The position numbers and the translations under genes are program-made. Under the pieces are notes generated by a model. That model was not told the origin of the DNA. It saw only the letters and a program-made list of their open reading frames with translations, and searched no databases. From the NCBI GenBank assembly GCA_036258095.1, contig DATAEJ010000013.1:20554-84553 (forward strand): a stretch of DNA of 64,000 nucleotides. The letters run 5' to 3'. Below, piece after piece: positions 19,404-31,403 of this stretch; position 1 is the first letter of the stretch; every line of letters starts with the position of its first letter. The stretch comes from Candidatus Angelobacter sp. Its GTDB lineage: Bacteria; Acidobacteriota; Terriglobia; Terriglobales; Acidobacteriaceae.

Positions 19404-20564
19404 ATGCAGACGGCAGATGTTGTCATTGTCGGAGGCGGAATCGTTGGATCCAGCATTGCGTGGCATCTGGCCGAAGCCGGTTGCCGCAATGTGCTGGTGA
19501 TCGAGCGAGAGAGTTCACAGGGCAAAGGGTCGACTGGGAAAAGCATGGGTGGGGTGCGCGCCCAGTTTTCCACCCCAGTGAACATCCAGATGTCGCTTTA
19601 TTCAATTCCCTTCTACGCGGAATTCGATGAGCGGCTCGGGCATCCCGGCGGCTACCGGCCGCAGGGGTACCTGTTTCTCGCCACTAAACCGGCACACCTT
19701 GAATACCTGGGCGTCAATATGATCAGGCAGCAGGCGCTCGGGCTGAAAACCGTTTGCAGTATGGAGCCGGAAGAAATCAGAAGCATGCTCCCCCAGTTGC
19801 GTACGGACGACGTCCTTGGAGGAAACTTCTGTTCGACGGATGGCTTTGTTGACCCCTACAGCGCGATGAACGGCTTCATGGCCAGTGCGGTCGAAAAGGG
19901 CGTTACGCTCTGGAAAAAGACCGAAGTTACTGGCGTGAACAGGGACTCTCAAGGGGTTTGCGGTGTGGAGACGTCCAAAGGGCCGGTGGTGACCCGCGTT
20001 TTGGTTAACGCGGCGGGGGCGTGGGCTGCAGGCGTGGCTAAAATGGCTGGGGTCGATCTTCCGGTCGAGCCCCTCAGGCGCATGCTGGTTCCTTCAGAGC
20101 CCTTTGACGGTTTTCCCCACAGCTCCCCAATGGTTATCGACATGTCCAACGGCTTTCATTTCCGGCCGGAAAGCCGGGGGTTTCTGCTTGCCTGGAACGA
20201 CCCTGAGGAGACTCCCGGGTTCAAAGACGGCTTTGAACCAGCCTTTATCGAAAAAATTCTGGTTCTCGCCGCTGATCGTGTGCCGGATTTCGAGAATCTG
20301 GCCATAAATCCAAAACGGGCCTGGGCTGGACTTTACGAAATGTCACCTGACCACCATGCAATACTGGGTGCCGTGCCCGAAGTCCCCGGATTTTTCCTCG
20401 CGAACGGCTTCAGCGGCCATGGAGTCATGCACGCTCCGTCGACAGGTAAAATATTGAGTGACTTGATCTTAGGGGGGAGAACCGACGTCGTGGATGACGT
20501 CTCAGTACTGGCTTTGGCCCGTTTCGCCAAAGGCGCCCTCATCCACGAAACAGCCCTGCTTTGA
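19404..20564 (+). CDS. FAD-dependent oxidoreductase (DAO / sarcosine-oxidase-beta-like)
   Basis: Dinucleotide-binding VVIVGGGIVGSSIAWHLAEAG and a C-terminal GFSGHGVMHAP motif. Confidence 0.85.
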   Translation: MQTADVVIVGGGIVGSSIAWHLAEAGCRNVLVIERESSQGKGSTGKSMGGVRAQFSTPVNIQMSLYSIPFYAEFDERLGHPGGYRPQGYLFLATKPAHLEYLGVNMIRQQALGLKTVCSMEPEEIRSMLPQLRTDDVLGGNFCSTDGFVDPYSAMNGFMASAVEKGVTLWKKTEVTGVNRDSQGVCGVETSKGPVVTRVLVNAAGAWAAGVAKMAGVDLPVEPLRRMLVPSEPFDGFPHSSPMVIDMSNGFHFRPESRGFLLAWNDPEETPGFKDGFEPAFIEKILVLAADRVPDFENLAINPKRAWAGLYEMSPDHHAILGAVPEVPGFFLANGFSGHGVMHAPSTGKILSDLILGGRTDVVDDVSVLALARFAKGALIHETALL

Positions 20565-20590
20565 GTGCTCTCAGATTTTTTCTCGCCGCC

Positions 20591-20694
20591 CTATATTTTT
20601 CGGCGGAGTGGCCGCTCTACTGCTACAGAAGCAGGCTCATCCGTCGACTGCTATTAAAGGCCAGAGACCCGGAAGCTCTGGCCTTTAACTATTT
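20591..20694 (+). repeat. tandem structured element copy 1 (candidate small RNA gene): TATATTT box, variable segment, 81-nt conserved core with hairpin
   Basis: Core at 20614..20694. 13-bp hairpin at 20653..20665 / 20675..20687. See the first finding. Confidence 0.8.
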
Positions 20695-20744
20695 CCAAAG
20701 CTTTTCTCCTTCGAGAATCTCATCCTTAGAAAATCTTAACGAGG

Positions 20745-20848
20745 CTATATTTTCCCGTGAGTCAGGCGCTCTACTGCTATAGAAGCAGGCTCATCCGTCG
20801 ACTGCTATTGAGGGCCAGAGACCCGGAAGCTCTGGCCCTTAACAATTT
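20745..20848 (+). repeat. tandem structured element copy 2
   Basis: Core at 20768..20848, with 6/81 mismatches to copy 1 by manual alignment. One mismatch pair is compensatory in the hairpin stem (20811 G with 20837 C). Confidence 0.8.
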
Positions 20849-20900
20849 TCTGGCGCCTTTTCGTCCCACAGTCGCAAATCCCGAAAAATCTAACGGTGAG

Positions 20901-21004
20901 GTATATTTCCAGACCCGGTCACCACTCTACTGGTATAGAAGCAGGCTCATCCGTCGACTGCTATTGAAGGCCAGAGACCCGGAAGCTCTGGCCTTTAACT
21001 ATTT
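20901..21004 (+). repeat. tandem structured element copy 3
   Basis: Core at 20924..21004, with 3/81 mismatches to copy 1 by manual alignment. Same TATATTT box 23 nt upstream. Confidence 0.8.
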
Positions 21005-21191
21005 CTGGCATTCCTCACAGCTTCGAATCGACCAGAAATTTTTTTGAATTCTCCTGAAACGGTTCCGCCAGTGCGTTCACTTATAGACAGGATGAACGGA
21101 GAAGTACCTGTGGCCGGCGGCGATTGCCAAGGGGGTGTAGCCGCCGGCCCGGCACTCTAAGTTCATATCTCCTTTGCCTCTTCAGTGATAC

Positions 21192-21230
21192 CGGGCGCGA
21201 GAGCACGCCATCTCGCGCCCTCTGCCTTTT
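21192..21230 (+). terminator. terminator-like hairpin in the tkt upstream region
   Basis: 10-bp stem GGGCGCGAGA / TCTCGCGCCC with an 8-nt loop, followed by TCTGCCTTTTT. Confidence 0.4.
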
Positions 21231-21483
21231 TGTCACAAGTATCTGCGTGGCTGGCAACGCGAGCGAGTCATCGTCCACAGAAACTCGAATTCAGGTTTGC
21301 TCAACAGTTCGGAAGTCAGCAGGCAGGCGATGCAAAACATTGCAGAGATGAAACCTGCACAAGATCGCTGCATCTGTTATGGTGAGGCCTTCGCCAAGAA
21401 CCTTGGTTGTGATGTAGGCTAGTTCTCAGGGACAGCCGCTGTCCTGACTGTCCACTCCCCCTGACAGGAGCGCCAAATACTCA

Positions 21484-23589
21484 ATGGCGGTTTCGCTTTC
21501 AGTACCGCAAGTGGCAGCCCAGACCAAGGACATCAAGCAAGCGGGCGGCATCGATCAGCTCACAATCAACACCATCCGCACGCTTTCGATGGATGCGGTG
21601 CAGCAAGCAAATTCCGGCCACCCGGGGACTCCCATGGCATTGGCGCCACTGGCGTATTGTCTGTGGCAGCGATTTTTACGGTACGACCCGGCGGATCCGG
21701 TTTGGCCGAATCGTGACCGCTTCGTCCTCTCCAACGGGCATGCTTCCATGCTGCTCTACTCGCTCCTGCACCTGACTGGCGTAAGGTCCGTCGATCATGA
21801 CGACCACGTGCAGGCCGAGCCCGCAATCACCCTGGACGAAATCAAGCGTTTTCGTCAAATTGACAGCCGCACCCCCGGCCATCCCGAATACCGACTTGTC
21901 CCAGGCGTTGAGACCACCACGGGGCCACTGGGGCAGGGCGTGGCAAACAGCGTCGGCATGGCCATTGCCGAGCGCTGGAAAGCAGAGTTCTTCAATCGTC
22001 CGGGATACCCGATCTTCGATCACAACGTTTACGCGATCTGCGGTGACGGCGACATGATGGAGGGAGTCTCCGGGGAAGCCGCATCGCTCGCCGGCCATCT
22101 CAAACTCTCAAACCTGTGCTGGCTGTATGACAACAACCACATCACAATCGAAGGTAAGACTTCACTTGCGTTCAGTGAAGATGTGGCCGCGCGTTTCATG
22201 GGCTACGGCTGGAACGTCACCCGCGTCGGCGACGCAAACGATCTTGGCTTAATCTCACGCGCTATCGAATGCTTTCACAATACGCATGACAGGCCAACTT
22301 TCATCATCGTTGACAGCCACATCGGGTACGGTGCGCCCAACCGCCAGGACACCAAGGAAGCCCACGGTGAGCCTTTGGGTGAGGAAGAAGTGCGGCTGGC
22401 AAAGAAATTTTATGGCTGGCCGGAAGAAGCGAAATTCCTTGTCCCGGATGGAGTGCGAGAAAACTTCGCTGAAGGAATCGGCAAGCGCGGTCGCGAATTG
22501 CGGGAACAATGGCAACAGCTCTTCCATAGCTATCGTAAAGAATTCCCGGAAATGGCGTGCCAGTTTGAGCGTATGATGCATCGCGATTTGCCGGACGGCT
22601 GGGACAAGAACCTGCCCAGCTTCCCTGCCGACGCAAAAGGCATCGCTACCCGTGAGTCTTCAGGCAAAGTCGAGAATGCCATTGCAAAGAACGTCCCGTG
22701 GCTGCTGGGCGGGGCGGCGGATCTGGCGCCCTCCACAAAAACGCTTCTCACTTTTGAAGGCGCGGGCAATTTCGAGGCCGACAGCTATGGCGGACGCAAC
22801 TTCCATTTTGGGATCCGCGAGCACGCGATGTGCTCCATTCTGAATGGCATGGCTCTGAGCAAACTGCGCCCGTATGGCGCCGGGTTTCTGATCTTCAGCG
22901 ACTACTCGCGGCCGCCCATGCGCCTGGCGGCGATCATGGAAATCCCGGTCATCTACATTTTTACCCATGACTCAATTGGCGTTGGCGAAGACGGCCCGAC
23001 TCATCAGCCGATCGAGCAGATCGCAGGCCTTCGCTCAGTCCCGGGATTCACTCTGATCCGCCCTTGCGACGCCAATGAAGTCATTGAAGCCTGGAAGGTC
23101 ATTATGCGGTTCCGCGAACGGCCGGCAGCATTGATCCTGACACGCCAGGCGGTTCCAACGCTGGACCGGACGAAATACGCGGCCGCATCGGGCGTGGCAA
23201 AAGGTGCTTACGTATTGGCTGATCCACCGCAGGGGCCGCCGGAACTGATCCTGATCGGTACAGGCAGTGAAGTTTCTTTATGCACTTCAACCTACGAGCA
23301 GCTGACCGCGGAAGGTAAGAAGGTCCGAGTGGTCAGCATGCCGTCCTGGGACCTCTTCGAAAAGCAGTCGAGGGAATACCGCGACAGCGTATTGCCGCCG
23401 CAAATCACGAAACGTATTTCAGTGGAACAAGCTTCAACCATGGGCTGGTCGCAATATGTGGGCTCCGCCGGCAAAACTATCGGTATGACAACCTACGGCG
23501 CATCGGCGCCGCTGAAGGACGTGCTCAAAAAATTTGGTTTTACACCGGATGCGGTTTTGGCGGCCGCACGGGAGATGCTCAACAAATAG
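21484..23589 (+). CDS. tkt: transketolase
   Basis: SGHPGTPMA, the TPP motif GDGDMMEG, and [15 protein letters not shown]. 701 aa. Confidence 0.96.
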
Positions 23590-23591
23590 CT

Positions 23592-24068
23592 ATGCGCGTC
23601 ACCATCGGCTCGGATCATGCCGGTTTCGAATTGAAGAAGGTGCTCACCGATTATCTTCGCCAAAGTGGGCACCAGATCACTGATGTTGGAACCAATAGCA
23701 CCATGCCGGTGGATTACCCCGATTATGCAGAAGCTGTGGCCTTGAGCGTTCTGCGCGGCGTTTCTGAACGGGGCATTCTGATTTGCGGAAGTGGAGTGGG
23801 AGCATCGGTAGCGGCGAACAAGATTCCCGGGATCCGCGCGGGGCTCTGCCACGACGGCTATTCCGCCCATCAGGGCGTGGAACATGACAATGTGAATCTG
23901 TTAGTCCTCGGAGCCCGCGTGATTGGCGTGGAGCTCGCGAAAGATCTTTGCACGGCATTCCTTAACGCCCAGTTCACGCACGAAGAGCGCCACGAGCGCC
24001 GCCTGGGGAAGATCCACAGCATCGAAGAGCGTTATGCAATGCAACCTGCTGCCAAGGAGAAATCATGA
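23592..24068 (+). CDS. rpiB: ribose 5-phosphate isomerase B
   Basis: MRVTIGSDHAGFELK and CGSGVGASVAANK (RpiB/LacAB family). Confidence 0.93.
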   Translation: MRVTIGSDHAGFELKKVLTDYLRQSGHQITDVGTNSTMPVDYPDYAEAVALSVLRGVSERGILICGSGVGASVAANKIPGIRAGLCHDGYSAHQGVEHDNVNLLVLGARVIGVELAKDLCTAFLNAQFTHEERHERRLGKIHSIEERYAMQPAAKEKS

Positions 24069-26974
24069 ATCCCGTATCCACCTTCGAAAAGCAGAGTGAA
24101 ACTCGAACCGCAACACACAACCCTCTGCTCGCGCTGCAGCAGCTTGGACAATCGATCTGGCTCGACTACATCCGCCGTAACCTGATTACCGGTGGAGAAC
24201 TGAAGCGATTGATTGACGAGGACGGCCTGCGCGGGATTACCTCGAATCCCTCCATATTCGAAAAGGCCATCGCCGGCAGCACAGACTACGCTGACATTCT
24301 TGAGCAGCTTCAGGCGCAGAACCTGAGTGCCGGCGAAATCTTCGAACGGATTGCGATCCGTGATATCCAGGATGCCGCCGATATGCTGCGGCCGGTTTAT
24401 GACGCCACCAAAATGGGCGATGGTTATGTGAGTCTTGAGGTCTCGCCTACTTTGGCGCGCCATACAAACGGAACTGTTGAAGAAGCGCGCCGGCTCTGGA
24501 AGGCTGTAGGCCGGCCGAATGTGATGATCAAGGTTCCGGGTACGCCTGAGGGCGTGCCTGCCGTGCGTCAATTGACCAGCGAAGGCATCAATATCAACAT
24601 CACGCTGCTCTTTGCTCAGGAAGCGTACGAGGCAGTTGCGGAGGCCTATACCGCAGGGTTGGAAGACAGGGTAAAGCAGGGCAAGGACATCAGCCGTCTC
24701 GCTAGTGTCGCCAGCTTCTTCGTAAGCCGCATCGACACCCTCGCCGATAGCACCATTCAGAACAAACTGAAAACGGAGACCGATCCGCAGAAAAAAGAGC
24801 TGCTCAATTCCCTGCTCGGAAAAGTGGCGATCGCAAATGCGAAGCAAGCCTACCGTACGTACCAAAAACTGATTGCTGAGAACCGGTGGAAGGCTCTTGC
24901 CGTAAAAGGGGCCACAACACAGCGTCTGCTATGGGCGAGCACGAGCACCAAGAATCCAGCCTATCGCGATGTGCTGTATGTCGAAGAGCTCATTGGCCCG
25001 GACACTGTAAACACCATTCCTCCCGCCACACTCGATGCTTTCCGTGATCACGGAAAGGTCAAGCGCACCATAGACTCTGATCTGCCCGCGGCGGACAAGG
25101 TGATGAGTGACCTGGAGCGGGCTGGGATATCGATGAAGCAGGTAACCGACCACCTGTTAGAGGACGCAATAAAGCTGTTTGACGACGCCTTCCAGAAGCT
25201 GCTCACGGCAGTGGAGCAAAAAAAAAAGCAATCAGATAAATCAAAGCCCCGCGCCGGAGCCCAAACGTTAGACCTGCCGCCAGAATTGAAGCAAGCAGTC
25301 AATGCGACCCTTCAGGACTGGGCCAAGAACGATAAAGTCAAACGGCTTTGGCAGGGCGATGCGTCCCTCTGGACCGGCACGGACGAGCAGAAGTGGCTCG
25401 GATGGCTTCATGTGGCTGAAGATGAGGCCCATGACGTTCCGCAGTTGCTGGACATCGCGCAAACTGCAAAGCAGGAAGGATACACACATGCCCTGCTGCT
25501 AGGCATGGGCGGCTCGAGCCTTTGCCCTGAAGTACTCTCCGTCACTTTTGGAAAGCAACCCGGCTCGCCTGAACTTCACATTCTCGATTCAACCGATCCG
25601 GCTCAGGTCAAGGCAGTTGAAGAAAGTATCGATCCAGCGAAAACTCTCTTCATTGTTGCCAGCAAGTCTGGCAGCACACTGGAGCCGAACATCTTTAAGC
25701 AGTATTTCTTCTCTGTTTCCGAGAGGGCTTTAGGTAAAGGTAAAGCCGGCAAGAACTTTCTGGCCATTACGGATCCGGGTTCGAAGATGCAGCAGGTCGC
25801 CGAAACGGATGGATTCCGTCAGATTTTCTTCGGCGTCCCGAGCATCGGCGGCCGCTACTCGGCGCTTTCGAACTTTGGTCTTGTCCCTGCAGCAGTCATG
25901 GGCCTGGATGTATCTCGTTTTCTTGAGAGCACCGAGCAGATGGTCCACGCCTGCGCGGCTACCGTCCCTGCTGCGGAAAATCCGGGCGTCATTCTTGGTG
26001 CAGTTCTCGGAACCGCGGCCACCCTGGGACGCAATAAAGTCACGATCATCACTTCACCGAAACTCTACGACGTCGGAGCCTGGCTGGAGCAGCTATTGGC
26101 GGAAAGCACGGGCAAGCAGGGTAAGGGACTTATTCCTGTCGATTGCGAAAAGCTCGGAGTTCCACAACTCTACGGCGGCGACCGGGTGTTCGCCTACTTA
26201 CGCCTTTCTGGAGACAGTAACAATGACCGGCAGGCCAAAGTTGATGCGCTGAAGAAGGCAGGCCAGCCAGTGGTCACGATCGACGTCGCTGATGTCTACG
26301 ACCTTGGCCAGGAATTCTTCCGCTGGGAGATTGCGACTGCCGTTGCCGGATCGATTCTTCACATCAATTCGTTCGATCAGCCTGATGTTGAGGCCAGCAA
26401 AGTGGTAACCCGGCAGCTTACGAGCGAGTACGAGAAAACCGGCAGATTACCTTCAGAAACCCCGATTGCCGAACAGGGCGGGATCAAGCTATTTACGGAC
26501 GATCGAAACGCGGAAAATCTGAAAAAACTTGCAGGCGGAAAAACCGATCTTACAAGTCTGCTGAGAGCACATCTCGGGCAACTGAGCGCCGGCGATTACT
26601 TTGCCCTGCTCGCTTACGTCCAGATGAATCCGGAACACGAACAGAGTCTGCAGGCGATACGCGATGAGGTCCTGCAGAAGAAGCGTGTTGCCACCTGTTT
26701 GGGTTTCGGGCCCAGATTTCTGCATTCAACCGGGCAAGCCTACAAGGGTGGCCCAAACACCGGTGTGTTTCTGCAAATCACCTGCGACGACGCCATTGAA
26801 CTGCCCGTGCCCGGCCAGAAATATACGTTCGGCGTAGTGAAGGCTGCACAAGCGCGGGGAGATTTCCAGGTACTGGCTGAGCGCGGGCGCCGGGCGCTGC
26901 GTGTGCACCTGCCGAAGGATGTGACAGAGGCACTCGACAAGCTTGGGCAACTTGTAAGCCATGCTTTGAAGTAG
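24065..26974 (+). CDS. tal-pgi: bifunctional transaldolase / glucose-6-phosphate isomerase fusion
   Basis: The N-terminal ~370 aa are transaldolase-like (LGQSIWLDYIRR, GITSNPSIFEKAI, MIKVPGT). The C-terminal ~590 aa are PGI-like (GMGGSSLCPEV, VASKSGSTLEP, GGRYSALS). Confidence 0.9.
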   Translation: MNPVSTFEKQSETRTATHNPLLALQQLGQSIWLDYIRRNLITGGELKRLIDEDGLRGITSNPSIFEKAIAGSTDYADILEQLQAQNLSAGEIFERIAIRDIQDAADMLRPVYDATKMGDGYVSLEVSPTLARHTNGTVEEARRLWKAVGRPNVMIKVPGTPEGVPAVRQLTSEGININITLLFAQEAYEAVAEAYTAGLEDRVKQGKDISRLASVASFFVSRIDTLADSTIQNKLKTETDPQKKELLNSLLGKVAIANAKQAYRTYQKLIAENRWKALAVKGATTQRLLWASTSTKNPAYRDVLYVEELIGPDTVNTIPPATLDAFRDHGKVKRTIDSDLPAADKVMSDLERAGISMKQVTDHLLEDAIKLFDDAFQKLLTAVEQKKKQSDKSKPRAGAQTLDLPPELKQAVNATLQDWAKNDKVKRLWQGDASLWTGTDEQKWLGWLHVAEDEAHDVPQLLDIAQTAKQEGYTHALLLGMGGSSLCPEVLSVTFGKQPGSPELHILDSTDPAQVKAVEESIDPAKTLFIVASKSGSTLEPNIFKQYFFSVSERALGKGKAGKNFLAITDPGSKMQQVAETDGFRQIFFGVPSIGGRYSALSNFGLVPAAVMGLDVSRFLESTEQMVHACAATVPAAENPGVILGAVLGTAATLGRNKVTIITSPKLYDVGAWLEQLLAESTGKQGKGLIPVDCEKLGVPQLYGGDRVFAYLRLSGDSNNDRQAKVDALKKAGQPVVTIDVADVYDLGQEFFRWEIATAVAGSILHINSFDQPDVEASKVVTRQLTSEYEKTGRLPSETPIAEQGGIKLFTDDRNAENLKKLAGGKTDLTSLLRAHLGQLSAGDYFALLAYVQMNPEHEQSLQAIRDEVLQKKRVATCLGFGPRFLHSTGQAYKGGPNTGVFLQITCDDAIELPVPGQKYTFGVVKAAQARGDFQVLAERGRRALRVHLPKDVTEALDKLGQLVSHALK

Positions 26975-27072
26975 GCCGGCTTTGAATCCCAACCCGGTGG
27001 CACGGATCCAAACATGTTCGTGCAGTTCAGGGTCTAAAGTTTTTCTGCGAAATTTTTGGAAATGAGGAAGAC

Positions 27073-28068
27073 ATGCAATTAGGAATGATCGGACTTGGCC
27101 GGATGGGCGGAAACATGGTCCGCCGGCTGATTCGAGGCGGCCACGAATGCGTTGTTTCTGATCTCAGTCCCGAGACGGTAGCATCGTTTGCAAAAGAAGG
27201 CGCCACAGGCTCAACATCACTTGATGACTTTGCAGCCAGGTTAAAAAAGCCACGTGCTGCGTGGATCATGGTGCCGGCCGGCGACCCAACAGAGAAAACT
27301 GTGGACGCTTTAGCGCAGCGGTTCGAGGCGGGCGACACGATCATCGATGGCGGCAATTCGTATTTCAAAGATGATATCCGGCGCTCACAGAAGCTGAAAG
27401 GTCGAGGAATCCATTATGTTGACGTCGGAACCAGTGGCGGCGTTTGGGGTCTTGAACGTGGCTATTGCATGATGCTCGGCGGTCCCCAGGAAGCTGTCGA
27501 GCGCCTCGATCCCATATTCCACACGCTTGCGCCCGGCATGGGCGACATTCCACGCACTATCGGCCGCGAGAAGCTTGGTGGCACATCAGAACTTGGTTAT
27601 CTGTACTGCGGGCCATCGGGCGCCGGGCACTTCGTAAAGATGGTGCATAACGGAATTGAGTACGGATTGATGCAGGCCTATGCCGAAGGCTTTGACATCT
27701 TTCGCAATGCATCGTCAGAACAGCTCCCAGCCGAGCAGCGATACCAGTTGAATCTGGCGGATATTGCCGAGGTCTGGCGGCGCGGCAGCGTCGTTTCGTC
27801 CTGGCTGCTTGATCTCACCGCGATGGCCCTGGCAGAAAATCCCACTCTCTCTGAGTACACCGGCTTTGTACAGGACTCAGGAGAAGGCCGCTGGACCATC
27901 ATGGCAGCAATTGACGAAGCTGTACCGGCTGACGTCCTTTCAGCCGCTCTTTACACACGTTTCCGCTCCCGCCAGGACCACACATTCGCTGAAAAGATGT
28001 TGAGCGCCATGCGCCAGAAGTTTGGCGGTCATATCGAACAGAACAACAAGAAACAAGCCGGCTCCTAA
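27073..28068 (+). CDS. gnd: decarboxylating 6-phosphogluconate dehydrogenase (short Gnd/YqeC type)
   Basis: [19 protein letters not shown] Rossmann motif, [30 protein letters not shown] upstream. Confidence 0.92.
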
Positions 28069-28084
28069 TCGCGGAGGAGAACTG

Positions 28085-29635
28085 ATGCCACAGCTTGAAA
28101 GAGAACTGCCCACACTAGAACGCACTCCCACCGGCACCCCGCGCCAGACCGGCCCCTGCGTCATGGTGATCTTTGGCGCTACCGGTGACCTCACGGCAAG
28201 AAAGCTCTTCCCTGCTCTATACAATCTTGCCAAGAGCAACTTGATTTCACGTGAATTCGCGATCGTGGGTATAGGTCGCAATGACTATTCCGTGGACCAG
28301 TTCCGGCAGCTTATGGGCCAGAAGTTGCAGAGCTTCGCTACCAGCAGCGTCGACAATGACCTTAAAGATTGGCTGCTGAGACGCGTTTACTACGTCGGAG
28401 GCGACTTCAACGATCCTGAACTTTATGCGCGCCTCGGCACCACCCTTACGCAAGTTGACCAGAACCATAACACTCACGGAAACTACTTTTTCTACCTGGC
28501 TACCAGCCCAACATTCTTTGGCGACATTGCCGAACGGCTCGGAGCGTCAGAACTGATCTGCGAAAAGGACGGCCACTGGCGTCGCATTGTTTTCGAAAAG
28601 CCTTTTGGTAATGACCTTGAATCGGCGAAAGCGCTGAATAAACAGGTAAGCAAGTTCCTGGCAGAGAACCAGATTTTCCGGATTGATCACTACCTGGGCA
28701 AGGAGACGGTCCAGAACATCCTGGTCTTCAGGTTCGCCAACGGCATTTTCGAACCGATCTGGAACCGGCGCTATGTTGACCACGTGCAGATCACGGTGGC
28801 CGAAACAGTTGGAGTGGAACAGCGCGGCGGTTATTTCGATGCCGCAGGCACATTGCGCGACATGGTTCCCAACCACCTTCTGCAACTGCTCTCGTTGACC
28901 ACCATGGAACCGCCGATTTCGTTCAGCTCTGATGCGGTGCATGACGAGCAATCCAAGCTTCTACATGCCATTCAATGCATGAGCGGCGAAGACGTGCTGC
29001 ACAATGCGGTCCGCGGACAATATGGCCCCGGTGAGACTGGCGGCGAGCGGGCCCCGGGCTACCGAGCTGAAGCCGGGGTGCCACCAGATTCCCGCACAGA
29101 AACATTCGTGGCTCTCAAGCTGTTGATCGACAACTGGCGCTGGGCAAGTGTTCCCTTCTACATCCGGACCGGGAAGCGTCTCTCAGCACGGCACACTGAG
29201 GTTGCCATCCAGTTCAGGCGTGCACCGCTCATCTTGTTCCGCGACACACCAGTAAGCAATCTAAAGCCGAATCAGTTAGTTATCCATATCGCCCCGGATG
29301 AAGGGATTTCCATGCGCTTTGGAGCGAAGATCCCGGGTGCCCAGATGAAGATAGGATCGGTGGAGATGGATTTTAACTACAACGACTATTTCGGCACGAA
29401 CCCGAACACCGGGTATGAAATCCTGCTCTATGACTGCATCATGGGCGACCACACGCTGTTCCAGCGGGCAGACATGGTGGAGGCCGGATGGGGGGTTGTA
29501 ACGCCGATCCTCGACGTATGGACAGCGCTCCCGCCCCGCGACTTCCCTAATTACCCTGCCGGGTCCTTTGGGCCGCCTGAAGCTGCGGACCTCATCGCCA
29601 GGGATGGACGCTCCTGGCGCAAGGTCGAGGAATGA
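28085..29635 (+). CDS. zwf: glucose-6-phosphate dehydrogenase
   Basis: [32 protein letters not shown] take the start at ATG 28085, just after the gnd stop. The track start at 28022 would overlap gnd. Confidence 0.95.
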
Positions 29636-30648
29636 TCCTGGCCGGGGACATCGGCGGCACCCACTCCAGAATTGCGCTCTTTGAAGCTGTAAATAACAAG
29701 CTGCGGCTGGTTGTCGAGAGGATTTATCCCAGCCGCGAACACAGCGGGTTGGAAGAGATCATCTCGCTCTTTCTGACCGACCAGGAAACCAGAATAGAGG
29801 CAGTGTGCTTTGGAATCGCCGGTCCGGTGATAAATGGTCGGGTATCAACCCCGAATCTTCCCTGGATTATCGATTCCATCGAACTGGCAAAGCATTCTGG
29901 GTTGCCAATTGTCTGGATCATTAACGATTTGCATGCTCACGCGTCCGGCATTGATGATTTGGGGGCAGCTGACGCAGTTGCGTTGAACGACTCGCCATCT
30001 CAGGCCGGCAACGCTGGCTTGATTGCGGCCGGCACGGGTTTAGGCGAGGCCGGCCTTTACTGGGATGGATCTCGTCGTTATGCGTTCCCATGCGAGGGCG
30101 GACACGCCGATTTCGCGCCCCGCAATGACTTGGAAATTGCCCTGCTCCGTTATCTTTTGAGCAGGTTTGGCCGGGTCAGTTATGAACGTGTTCTATCAGG
30201 TCCCGGATTGGTCAATATTTACGAGTTCCTCCGCGAATCAGGAGCAGAAACCGAACCTGAATGGCTAGCCGACGAACTCAAGAGCTCGAACGATGCAGGA
30301 GCGACGATCTCCCATCATGGGATGTCGGCCGAGGCACCCATTTGCGAACACGCAATTGATCTCTTTGTTTCGATTTACGGGGCTGAAGCGGGCAATCTTG
30401 CGCTTAAGCTGCTTGCTACCGGAGGCATTTTCGTAAGCGGAGGCATCGCCAAACGCATTTTACCCAAGCTGCAACAGGCAGAGTTCAGGCGTGCCTTTAC
30501 CGTCAAGGGCCGGTTACAACCCTTATTAGAGAAGATTCCAGTCCGCGTCATTGTGAATGACGCAGTGGGACTCCTCGGTGCAGCACGCTATGCCCTCAAC
30601 CAGACACAACTCAAAATGCGCGCACAGACGGAAGGAACGGAACAATGA
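29632..30648 (+). CDS. glk: glucokinase
   Basis: [18 protein letters not shown]-terminal ATP motif, glucokinase-family length, and a 4-nt overlap with zwf. Confidence 0.88.
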
Positions 30649-31403
30649 AGGGCGATCCGGCGACTCTCAAGAAACCCGATTTCGTCAAAGTGGTGCCGGA
30701 TGCCGAAGAGCTCAGCCGCACTGCTGTAGAAGAGATTGGGCGGTGCGCGCAGGAGAGCATTTCTGGGCGCGGACGCTTCACGTTGGTCCTCTCAGGAGGC
30801 AACACTCCGCGAGCCATATATGCTCGGCTCGCATCGGAAAAGAAGAACGAGCTGCCCTGGGACAAAGTATTCGTCTTTTTCGGGGATGAACGCCATGTTC
30901 CTCCCGAACATCCTGACAGCAACTTCCGGATGGCCAGGGAGTCACTGCTGGCGCAGGCGCCCATTCCCTCGGAAAACGTGCACAGAATTCCGGCTGAACT
31001 GGATGCGCAGACCGCTGCGGTGAGTTATGCGCAGGACATCACTTCCTTTTTCCGTCTTGCTCCGGGTGCTTTGCCGCGCTTCGATCTCATCCTGCTGGGG
31101 ATGGGCGATGACGGCCATACAGCATCACTTTTTCCCGGAACGACTGCGCTACGCGAAAACAAGCTGTTCGTGGTTGCCAATGATGTTGCGAAGCTGAATA
31201 CTCAACGCATCACCCTGACCTATCCTGTCCTGAACAACGCCGCTGAGGTTATGGTTATGGTCTCAGGGAGTGGAAAGGCGGAAATTCTCGCGGAAGTCCT
31301 GAGGTCCGGGGACTCTAATCGCTTCCCGGTGATCGGCGTCGGCCCTAAGCAGGGCCGACTCATTTGGCTGGTCGATGAGGCCGCCGCTCGCCTGCTTCGG
31401 TAG
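30645..31403 (+). CDS. pgl: 6-phosphogluconolactonase
   Basis: LSGGNTP and GMGDDGHTASLFPG motifs. 4-nt overlap with glk. Confidence 0.92.
   Translation: MKGDPATLKKPDFVKVVPDAEELSRTAVEEIGRCAQESISGRGRFTLVLSGGNTPRAIYARLASEKKNELPWDKVFVFFGDERHVPPEHPDSNFRMARESLLAQAPIPSENVHRIPAELDAQTAAVSYAQDITSFFRLAPGALPRFDLILLGMGDDGHTASLFPGTTALRENKLFVVANDVAKLNTQRITLTYPVLNNAAEVMVMVSGSGKAEILAEVLRSGDSNRFPVIGVGPKQGRLIWLVDEAAARLLR

Follow-up and report, generated by a model that had tools for sequence, protein, structure and literature searches.

A 64,000-nt stretch of DNA from Candidatus Angelobacter sp. (contig DATAEJ010000013.1, hereafter the window) carries three tandem copies of a short structured element in the gap between a gene for a DAO-family FAD oxidoreductase and the transketolase gene tkt. 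With a probability of roughly 0.6, these repeats are tandem, independently transcribed paralogous genes of an undescribed family of small RNAs (sRNAs) that would act in trans through an invariant hairpin. By sequence comparison it is a new RNA family, belonging neither to any Rfam family nor to a named family of sibling sRNAs. A scan of the whole window with Rfam 15 at gathering thresholds gave no match at the array, the Acido-1, Acido-Lenti-1, csRNA, ANTAR and mini-ykkC families included, in line with an earlier reading of the letters (the original prediction) that could not assign the element to a named family. At E<=10 the region 20500-21500 returned chance-level hits only, namely csRNA (20.1 bits for a gathering score of 57, E=7.4), mir-4435 (14.9/58) and Mu-gpT-DE (14.5/49). 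Literature searches by topic and by sequence string yielded nothing on this RNA apart from primer coincidences, and no regulatory sRNA family described for Acidobacteriota was found in the literature.

The oxidoreductase gene (19404-20564) and tkt (21484-23589) are separated by 919 nt. The original prediction had this length right and also held the gap to be free of open reading frames (ORFs), whereas mechanical ORFs of up to 96 aa are present. A repeat search found in the gap a 104-nt unit in three direct copies, all on the + strand (20592-20695, 20746-20849 and 20902-21005), with the spacing of 154 and 156 nt that had been announced. The coordinates given earlier were all 1 nt too low, the TATATTT boxes really starting at 20592, 20746 and 20902, and the mismatches to copy 1 over the 81 nt first delimited as the core amount on recount to 5/81 in copy 2 and 4/81 in copy 3, instead of 6/81 and 3/81. 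A 28-nt core string has three exact matches in the window, all on the + strand, and none in 100 shuffles; the covariance model R1 retrieved no further copies from the window. As had been described, a TATATTT box stands upstream of each core, where it is also conserved in relatives, and the segments between box and core and those after the core are dissimilar among the copies on alignment. The proposed 13-bp terminal hairpin with its 9-nt loop was recovered as an inverted repeat. In this hairpin, copy 2 shows the compensatory exchange of A-U for G-C relative to copy 1 (20812 G with 20838 C), and an A-to-G change in copies 2 and 3 results in a G·U pair. The features of the array are listed in Table 1.

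In an alignment of 118 distinct members, the sequence common to all types of the family begins at AGCAG. This pentamer opens hairpin 1, made of AGCAG, a 13-nt loop GCUCAUCCGUCGA and CUGCU, with a 5-bp stem. An A/U-rich linker of 4-12 nt then leads to hairpin 2, which has a stem of about 10 bp, a loop (G)ACCCGGAAG(C) that contains CCGGA in almost all members, and a variable tail. The 23 nt of hairpin 1 are identical in 277 of the 281 copies collected, the four exceptions being a single insertion or substitution, and they are unchanged across genomes whose transketolases are down to about 75-77% identical. The genome search itself selected on hairpin 1; a metagenome pattern in which the 13-nt loop was written as N was used against this bias, and the loop was the same in 130/130 instances (96 distinct). 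To judge from these sequences, hairpin 1, stem included, is under extreme constraint. Because it never varies, its pairing is neither supported nor refuted by covariation. Relaxed string searches yielded four variants, with 1-nt insertions or substitutions, and a search with R1 for divergent copies in 732 kb of related loci gave only one more (L037:2579). This copy and L207 are the only natural variants of hairpin 1 outside a soil metagenome contig with five tandem copies (L160 1233-2054, - strand), three of which bear a 1-nt insertion on the 3' side of the hairpin (GTCGAACTGCT or GTCGACTTGCT).

Hairpin 2 is strongly supported by covariation: nine of its ten pairs show double changes, 95.8% of the cells are paired and 324 cells are changed on both sides. 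These values were reached in 0 of 500 shuffles, and slid controls were 34-55% paired. Among the stem cells, 98 are G·U or U·G vs 13 A·C or C·A, an excess that argues for selection on the + strand RNA. By this signature the + strand is the RNA strand, as the G·U reasoning had already proposed from the A-to-G changes in the window. A 'helix 3' drawn by RNAalifold (CC/GG inside loop 2) is an artefact of alignment gap columns and was not used. The T tract that follows hairpin 2 is interrupted (CTATTTCC after the stem in copy 1), and the 10 nt after the stem contain on average 5.4 T in the family and 3.5 at the anti-sigma locus described below. A frame scan agrees with the earlier observation that one + frame is open through all three window cores, that all other frames, the reverse ones included, contain stops, and that no start codon is consistent. 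The 154-nt spacing puts the core in a different frame in different window copies, and in relatives 1-2 nt indels in the linker and the stems break the open frame. A gene for a small peptide or for a precursor of a ribosomally synthesized and post-translationally modified peptide was rejected on account of these indels and of a start codon that is not shared.

The range of the family was explored with an exact 21-mer from hairpin 1, GCAGGCTCATCCGTCGACTGC, as query against species-representative genomes. It matched at least 119 genomic stretches in metagenome-assembled genomes (MAGs), and the family is also present on at least 119 soil metagenome contigs. Among the matches listed, the MAGs are labelled Ca. 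Angelobacter, Terriglobia, Terriglobales, Acidobacteriaceae or Ca. Acidiferrales, with the exception of three contigs (L064, L095 and L111) from two MAGs labelled Actinomycetota and Candidatus Limnocylindrales; on these the element has Terriglobia-like flanks, and the labels are probably due to mis-binning. Viral contigs searched for the core gave 0 matches. As far as sampled, the family thus appears confined to an uncultured Terriglobia clade labelled 'Candidatus Angelobacter'. Single MAGs contribute at least 3-5 separate loci, and each MAG has at least 4-5 copies. Chains of several copies, counted over all collected loci, have two copies in 15 cases, three in eight, four in one and five in one, and the orientation is uniform, head to tail, in 25/25 of them. 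Five metagenome contigs (L193, L195, L201, L204 and L164) end inside the invariant hairpin or a few nt before it. Such breaks are to be expected at a multi-copy exact repeat, and the copy numbers of short-read MAGs are therefore underestimates. In the same way, contig starts a few nt before AGCAG are read as assembly breaks at the repeat and not as transcript ends.

The location of the copies is conserved as well. The transketolase of the window is identical to one annotated from a 'Candidatus Angelobacter sp.' MAG (Acidobacteriota, class Terriglobia). Seven metagenome contigs also encode it, and all of those that reach the intergenic region (6/6) have the identical three copies. In relatives with transketolases 91%, 77% and 77% identical, the order oxidoreductase, gap, tkt is kept with 4, 2 and 3 copies, respectively, all on the strand of the genes and all with cTATATTT upstream; the cores are about 95-100% identical, and the segments between and around them have diverged. 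Clustering of the proteins flanking the loci delineated five syntenic sites. At site 1, the DAO gene is followed by 2-4 tandem copies and by tkt, or by a methyltransferase gene and then tkt. The other sites hold one copy each: within a cluster of an extracytoplasmic function (ECF) sigma factor, a TPR-CHAT protein, a zf-HC2 anti-sigma-like gene and S8 proteases, the copy standing between the TPR-CHAT and the zf-HC2 genes (site 2); divergent from holB (site 3); between DinB-like and cysteine-synthase-like genes (site 4); and upstream of an unannotated putative lipoprotein (site 5). The downstream gene lies on the opposite strand for 8/12 copies of type B and 13 copies of type A (types defined below), and on the same strand for most type-A copies. 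The syntenic sites and the uniform orientation in chains therefore speak for a paralogous gene family and not for a mobile repeat.

Upstream of the single RNA core, three unrelated blocks were found. Type A, to which the window copies and 119/148 genome instances belong, reads AAAAnTTT-N9-cTATATTT-N16-gACTCTAC-N8-AGA, then AGCAG (consensus of 83 distinct sequences). Type B (12 instances) has a strongly conserved TAAACCTGATGAAACCTTTT...TA[AC]TCT block, readable as aTGAaA-N17-TA[AC]TCT, which ends 8 nt before AGCAG. Type C (14 instances) consists of an A/T-rich run, TTGTTCC, about 16 nt, and GTGTCC about 8 nt before AGCAG. In type A, TATAT[TC] and [AC]CTCT stand exactly 16 nt apart in 215/222 cases and 17 nt apart in 7/222. 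This pair occurs once without a canonical hairpin, beside the degenerate copy of L207, and when sought upstream of other genes in the collected loci it was never found apart from the RNA. A segment of fixed length and free sequence between two boxes is the signature of a promoter spacer, and the variable stretch of about 15 nt reads better as such than as the 5' seed or guide of the original prediction, the more so as types B and C do not have it. The alternative fold that had been suggested, in which AGCAG pairs with an upstream CUGCU, did not hold up across the family either: of 88 distinct type-A 5' segments, 15 allow the full pairing and 18 have G-C as the centre pair, and the most frequent variant, CUACU, disrupts the pairing. 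What had been proposed as three sRNA genes is thereby retained as a structured, strand-specific RNA family, stripped of the guide and of the alternative fold.

The roles of the two type-A boxes can be assigned in two ways. On the somewhat likelier one, TATATT would occupy the -35 position and ACTCTAC the -10 position, and if so the RNA would start within a few nt of AGCAG and measure about 65-75 nt. On the somewhat less likely one, TATATT would be the -10 box, and the RNA would run to about 105 nt, its short 5' end being unconstrained. Some loci, a conserved subset, carry TATATC instead of TATATT, a change that would damage a -10 hexamer, and no -35 hexamer or TGn was found at the right distance from TATATT. 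Moreover, a canonical promoter, TTGACA-N16-TAGAAT, precedes tRNA-Leu in a related locus (L028) with an A/T block about 10-11 nt 5' of the -35 hexamer, and the type-A A/T block lies at the same distance from TATATT; this calibration on tRNA genes had a single tRNA in 1.7 Mb to draw on (n=1).

On the favoured reading, each copy would be transcribed from its own upstream boxes into a + strand RNA with a conserved body of about 65-75 nt. TATATT, 16 nt and ACTCTAC would form the promoter of each copy and the variable segment its spacer; should the start lie just past TATATTT, the segment would become an unconstrained 5' leader. The products would be sibling sRNAs which, having one common recognition element, would meet the same partners in trans, and promoter classes and copy numbers would set the input signals and the dosage. 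Base pairing initiated by the exposed invariant loop would be the most likely mode, with protein capture as its main rival. Trans action is suggested because the neighbouring genes are unrelated and the downstream gene often lies on the opposite strand. As regards the features by which trans-acting sRNAs are recognized, hairpin 1 offers a shared recognition sequence; the copies are intergenic behind three types of promoter-like block, no sigma-70 consensus promoter being called at the window copies by a promoter scan; and the stem in the place of a Rho-independent terminator covaries strongly and has an uncalled T tract.

Sibling trans-acting sRNAs include Qrr1-5 of Vibrio and csRNA1-5 of Streptococcus as well as the tandem pairs OmrA/OmrB, PrrF1/PrrF2 and AbcR1/AbcR2. 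In mode, the new family most resembles such siblings (Qrr1-5, csRNA1-5, OmrA/B, PrrF1/2), with several paralogues per genome, some of them in tandem and each with its own, here predicted, promoter, a long stretch identical across paralogues and species, a covarying 3' hairpin and a copy number that varies among related species. It differs from them by the lack of any sequence or Rfam relationship, the csRNA hit given above being the best, by an invariant stretch that is a whole hairpin with its stem instead of a single-stranded seed, and by a conserved terminator loop, three promoter classes and a weak U tail.

Several observations weigh against this reading. Hairpin 1 is without covariation and its folding is predicted only. 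The U-rich tail of the original prediction proved weak and interrupted, and a terminator scan called none of the three hairpin-2 stems of the window (0/3); with such a weak terminator the copies could be subject to read-through or arise by processing of a longer RNA. No sigma factor consensus is known to fit TATATT at -35 with ACTCTA at -10. Sites complementary to the hairpin-1 loop in 1.7 Mb of related DNA amount to about 18 non-self 10-mers vs 12.6 expected, in a context that does not recur. Finally, the conservation of loop 2 is unusual for a plain base-pairing sRNA, and this, like the copy without U tail in the leader of the anti-sigma gene, is at least equally compatible with a motif that binds protein or acts in cis. 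Apart from these points, a 10-nt exact complement of the loop, TCGACGGATG, lies in the DAO gene itself (19833-19842, + strand); it is absent from the DAO orthologues of related loci and is probably due to chance.

Among the other explanations, the strongest contender, although unlikely, is a protein-binding RNA in which a regulator would read hairpin 1, loop and stem alike, along with the GGA-containing loop 2. The free copies, the three of the window included, would then be decoys or sponges, and the copy in the leader of the anti-sigma and S8 protease genes a direct regulatory site. In base-pairing sRNAs, the loop of the terminator can normally vary freely; here loop 2 (ACCCGGAAG, with CCGGA in all types) is constant and the stem around it compensates. 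Likewise, the stem of hairpin 1 is invariant in sequence and does not covary, as if read directly, and by inspection a string A-Y-C-C-G-K is common to both loops. The motif is also found inside an mRNA leader, about 24-35 nt before the zf-HC2 anti-sigma-like gene and without a U tail. However, no candidate protein has emerged; the neighbouring genes vary by locus, and no RNA-binding protein gene recurs beside the family loci; each unit has one GGA, unlike sponges of the CsrB/RsmZ type; and multi-target sRNAs that act by base pairing, Qrr among them, typically have a fully invariant stretch of this kind as well. A related and more speculative proposal, a little less likely again, would make the family the RNA component of a regulatory system of RNA and protein that has gone unrecognised in soil Acidobacteriota, with free tandem decoys (2-5 copies) upstream of the pentose-phosphate operon and an anti-sigma/protease leader in the ECF-sigma/TPR-CHAT cluster. 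If it were true, envelope or protease signalling would be tied to post-transcriptional control.

The model of the original prediction, in which the RNA starts about 7 nt past TATATTT as the -10 box and each paralogue adds its own 5' seed or guide to a shared scaffold, must be regarded as improbable. TATATT does match 5/6 of the sigma-70 -10 consensus in almost every type-A copy, the segments differ among copies, and the sequence between box 2 and AGCAG varies across paralogous loci and is conserved among orthologues. Nevertheless, only about 8-9 nt of the segment would be transcribed, its length is fixed, it drifts between close species whose cores are identical, and two of the three upstream types do without it altogether. 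The TATATC subset would lack the final T, which in a -10 box is normally critical, the elements expected upstream of such a box are missing, and the A/T block lies about 10 nt 5' of box 1, as it does beside the -35 hexamer of the tRNA-Leu promoter. In addition, no Cas-, TnpB- or IscB-like gene occurs within about 12 kb (none among the Pfam-scanned genes, at about 8-20.6 kb and 21.5-42 kb). Less probable still is a cis-acting leader, in which the copies would be tandem attenuators or riboswitch-like modules governing read-through into the tkt-rpiB-tal/pgi-gnd-zwf-glk-pgl operon. They share its strand in a conserved synteny, the gene downstream of most type-A copies is on the same strand, a terminator-like hairpin ends each unit, and one member of the family truly lies in an mRNA leader, that of the anti-sigma gene. 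Yet each unit has its own conserved promoter-like block, about 470 nt and a separate terminated RNA lie between copy 3 and tkt, the same core stands beside unrelated or opposite-strand downstream genes, a methyltransferase gene stands between array and tkt in L010, and two simple hairpins offer little from which to form a ligand pocket. Cis action of the window copies on the tkt operon is thus considered unlikely, and a riboswitch or cis leader was rejected for the family as a whole on the opposite-strand genes; the anti-sigma class of loci does fit it. The least probable explanation is that the element is no RNA gene at all and represents a dispersed repeat of the repetitive extragenic palindromic (REP) or miniature inverted-repeat transposable element (MITE) kind, a group of DNA sites bound by proteins or a gene for a small peptide. 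It is indeed a multi-copy element inside which several metagenome contigs end, hairpin 1 is an inverted repeat with the palindrome GTCGAC, and one + frame runs open through the core. Against this, the loci are syntenic across species and not scattered, the orientation within arrays is uniform, the stems show many compensatory changes, G·U pairs in excess of A·C pairs mark selection on one RNA strand, members differ by frame-breaking indels, and terminal inverted repeats and target-site duplications were not seen in the flanks, inspected by eye only. The core search in relatives, which returned a large syntenic family, points the same way, and a REP/MITE repeat was rejected on the handful of syntenic loci, the single orientation of all 25 chains and the strand-specific G·U pairs.

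Other known systems were compared with the family. Like CsrB/CsrC and RsmX/Y/Z, it is multi-copy and sometimes tandem, it displays GGA in a hairpin loop (ACCCGGAAG) and its motif could serve both mRNA leaders and decoys. In contrast to these sponges, which have 4-22 GGA motifs per RNA, it has one, and its dominant conserved element, GCUCAUCCGUCGA, is free of GGA on the transcribed strand; a CsrB/RsmZ-type sponge was rejected because just one loop GGA, in hairpin 2, is present per unit. ANTAR targets consist of two hairpins, joined by a short linker, with hexaloops (A at position 1, G at position 4), and EutX/Rli55 is a decoy sRNA of this kind. The family shares with them a pair of neighbouring hairpins whose loops are conserved and of which the second overlaps a terminator-like stem; the ANTAR motif, too, occurs in leaders and, in one case, in a free sRNA that titrates the protein. 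An ANTAR target was rejected since the loops measure 13 and about 9 nt and no Rfam ANTAR match was obtained; no ANTAR-domain gene was seen beside the family loci. With ECF-sigma-dependent sRNAs such as MicA, RybB and MicL, the family can be compared through the TGAAAC-containing block of type B, the two boxes with a rigid spacer of type A and the family member within the ECF sigma/TPR-CHAT/anti-sigma cluster, whereas TATATT and ACTCTA of type A differ from the AAC and CGT usual in ECF promoters. A CRISPR array or guide RNA was rejected given the 16-nt segment between promoter-like boxes, its slow orthologous drift, the lack of a nuclease gene nearby and the 0 viral matches. A supposed resemblance of GGCTCATCCGTCGAC to the nexus of the SpCas9 single-guide RNA and another to the anticodon arm of initiator tRNA were dropped.

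Table 1. Features of the three-copy array, all within the window
Feature	Positions	Strand	Evidence and remarks
Copy 1, whole unit (box 1, 16-nt spacer, box 2, hairpin 1, linker, hairpin 2, short T-containing tail)	20592..20699	+	Repeat; covariance-model match 20629-20707, 81.6 bits, E=3.5e-20
Copy 2, whole unit	20746..20853	+	Repeat; covariance-model match 20783-20861, 82.8 bits
Copy 3, whole unit	20902..21009	+	Repeat; covariance-model match 20939-21017, 80.8 bits
Box 1, copy 1, TATATTT, promoter-like	20592..20598	+	A/T-rich block upstream at 20573-20581
Box 1, copy 2, TATATTT	20746..20752	+	GAAAAT upstream at 20729-20734
Box 1, copy 3, TATATTT	20902..20908	+	GAAAAAT upstream at 20883-20889
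Box 2, copy 1, GCTCTAC (family consensus gACTCTAC)	20614..20620	+	Exactly 16 nt past TATATT
Box 2, copy 2, GCTCTAC	20768..20774	+	Sequence, family spacing
Box 2, copy 3, ACTCTAC	20924..20930	+	Sequence, family spacing
Hairpin 1, copy 1: AGCAG (20630-20634), 13-nt loop GCTCATCCGTCGA, CTGCT (20648-20652)	20630..20652	+	Invariant family core
Hairpin 1, copy 2	20784..20806	+	Exact core string; family alignment
Hairpin 1, copy 3	20940..20962	+	Exact core string; family alignment
Hairpin 2, copy 1: 13-bp stem (arms 20654-20666 / 20676-20688), 9-nt loop ACCCGGAAG, then CTATTTCC	20654..20688	+	Inverted repeat, fold, family covariation; terminator-like, weak T tract
Hairpin 2, copy 2: G-C in place of A-U and a G·U pair, compared with copy 1	20808..20842	+	Inverted repeat, fold
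Hairpin 2, copy 3: one G·U pair relative to copy 1	20964..20998	+	Inverted repeat, fold

The array is surrounded by genes of general metabolism. Among the neighbours within about 12 kb on both sides, the Pfam-scanned genes have housekeeping or metabolic roles; three had no domain match. Upstream, a gene for a BNR/sortilin-like protein is followed by that of the DAO enzyme. Downstream, one co-directional run (21484-31403, + strand) comprises the whole pentose-phosphate and glucose entry pathway in the order tkt, rpiB, a 969-aa tal-pgi fusion (transaldolase-phosphoglucose isomerase), gnd, zwf, glk and pgl. Further along the window, a fluoride riboswitch (crcB motif, RF01734; 54508-54571, + strand, 64.1 bits, E=1.8e-15) is the sole Rfam family above its gathering score.

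The stretch between copy 3 and tkt holds a different conserved structured RNA with its own strong terminator. This second, unrelated RNA (21035-21232, + strand) lies directly past the array and occupies the same position in at least 20 related loci. It comprises an A/T block, the box TGAAAC, the invariant sequence CAGGATGAACGGAGAAG, a hairpin GGCCGGCGG/CCGCCGGCC that covaries in its stem and has an invariant loop, TTGCCAAGGGGGTGT, and a CU-rich CCTTTGCCTCTTCAG, and closes with the terminator (21193-21220) and a T run. RNAalifold predicts 33 pairs in it, eight of which show double changes, and it has no match in Rfam at E<=10. A 22-aa ORF that it contains is excluded as coding by single-nt indels. 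Pairing of the hairpin-1 loop with the second RNA (21085-21232) was predicted at -16.3 kcal/mol, no better than for shuffled loops.

The cluster with the TPR-CHAT gene (L033 3654-7967, - strand) has about 30 equivalent loci in relatives, always with one family member. Its order is ECF sigma gene, TPR-CHAT gene, family member, zf-HC2 anti-sigma-like gene and S8 subtilases. The copy begins about 20 nt past the CHAT stop, and because the anti-sigma start codon follows within about 24-35 nt, it must belong to the anti-sigma mRNA leader. The region upstream of the ECF sigma gene is inside or abuts another coding gene and has no shared motif. In its sigma/CHAT-protease/anti-sigma logic the gene set resembles the accessory modules of type III-E CRISPR systems, but Cas genes were not seen.

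In soil, Acidobacteriota rank with the most abundant bacteria, and the family may offer an entry point to post-transcriptional control in an uncultured lineage of this phylum. Its comparative support is broad, with hundreds of copies, clear covariation and a defined strand, and the rigid 23-nt recognition element is unusual. If the copies are sibling sRNAs, one RNA core behind three promoter types and in variable tandem dosage would amount to a natural 'experiment' in regulation. In practical terms, the family provides a marker and a covariance model ready for annotating Terriglobia MAGs. It would add a new family of regulatory RNAs and not a new principle.

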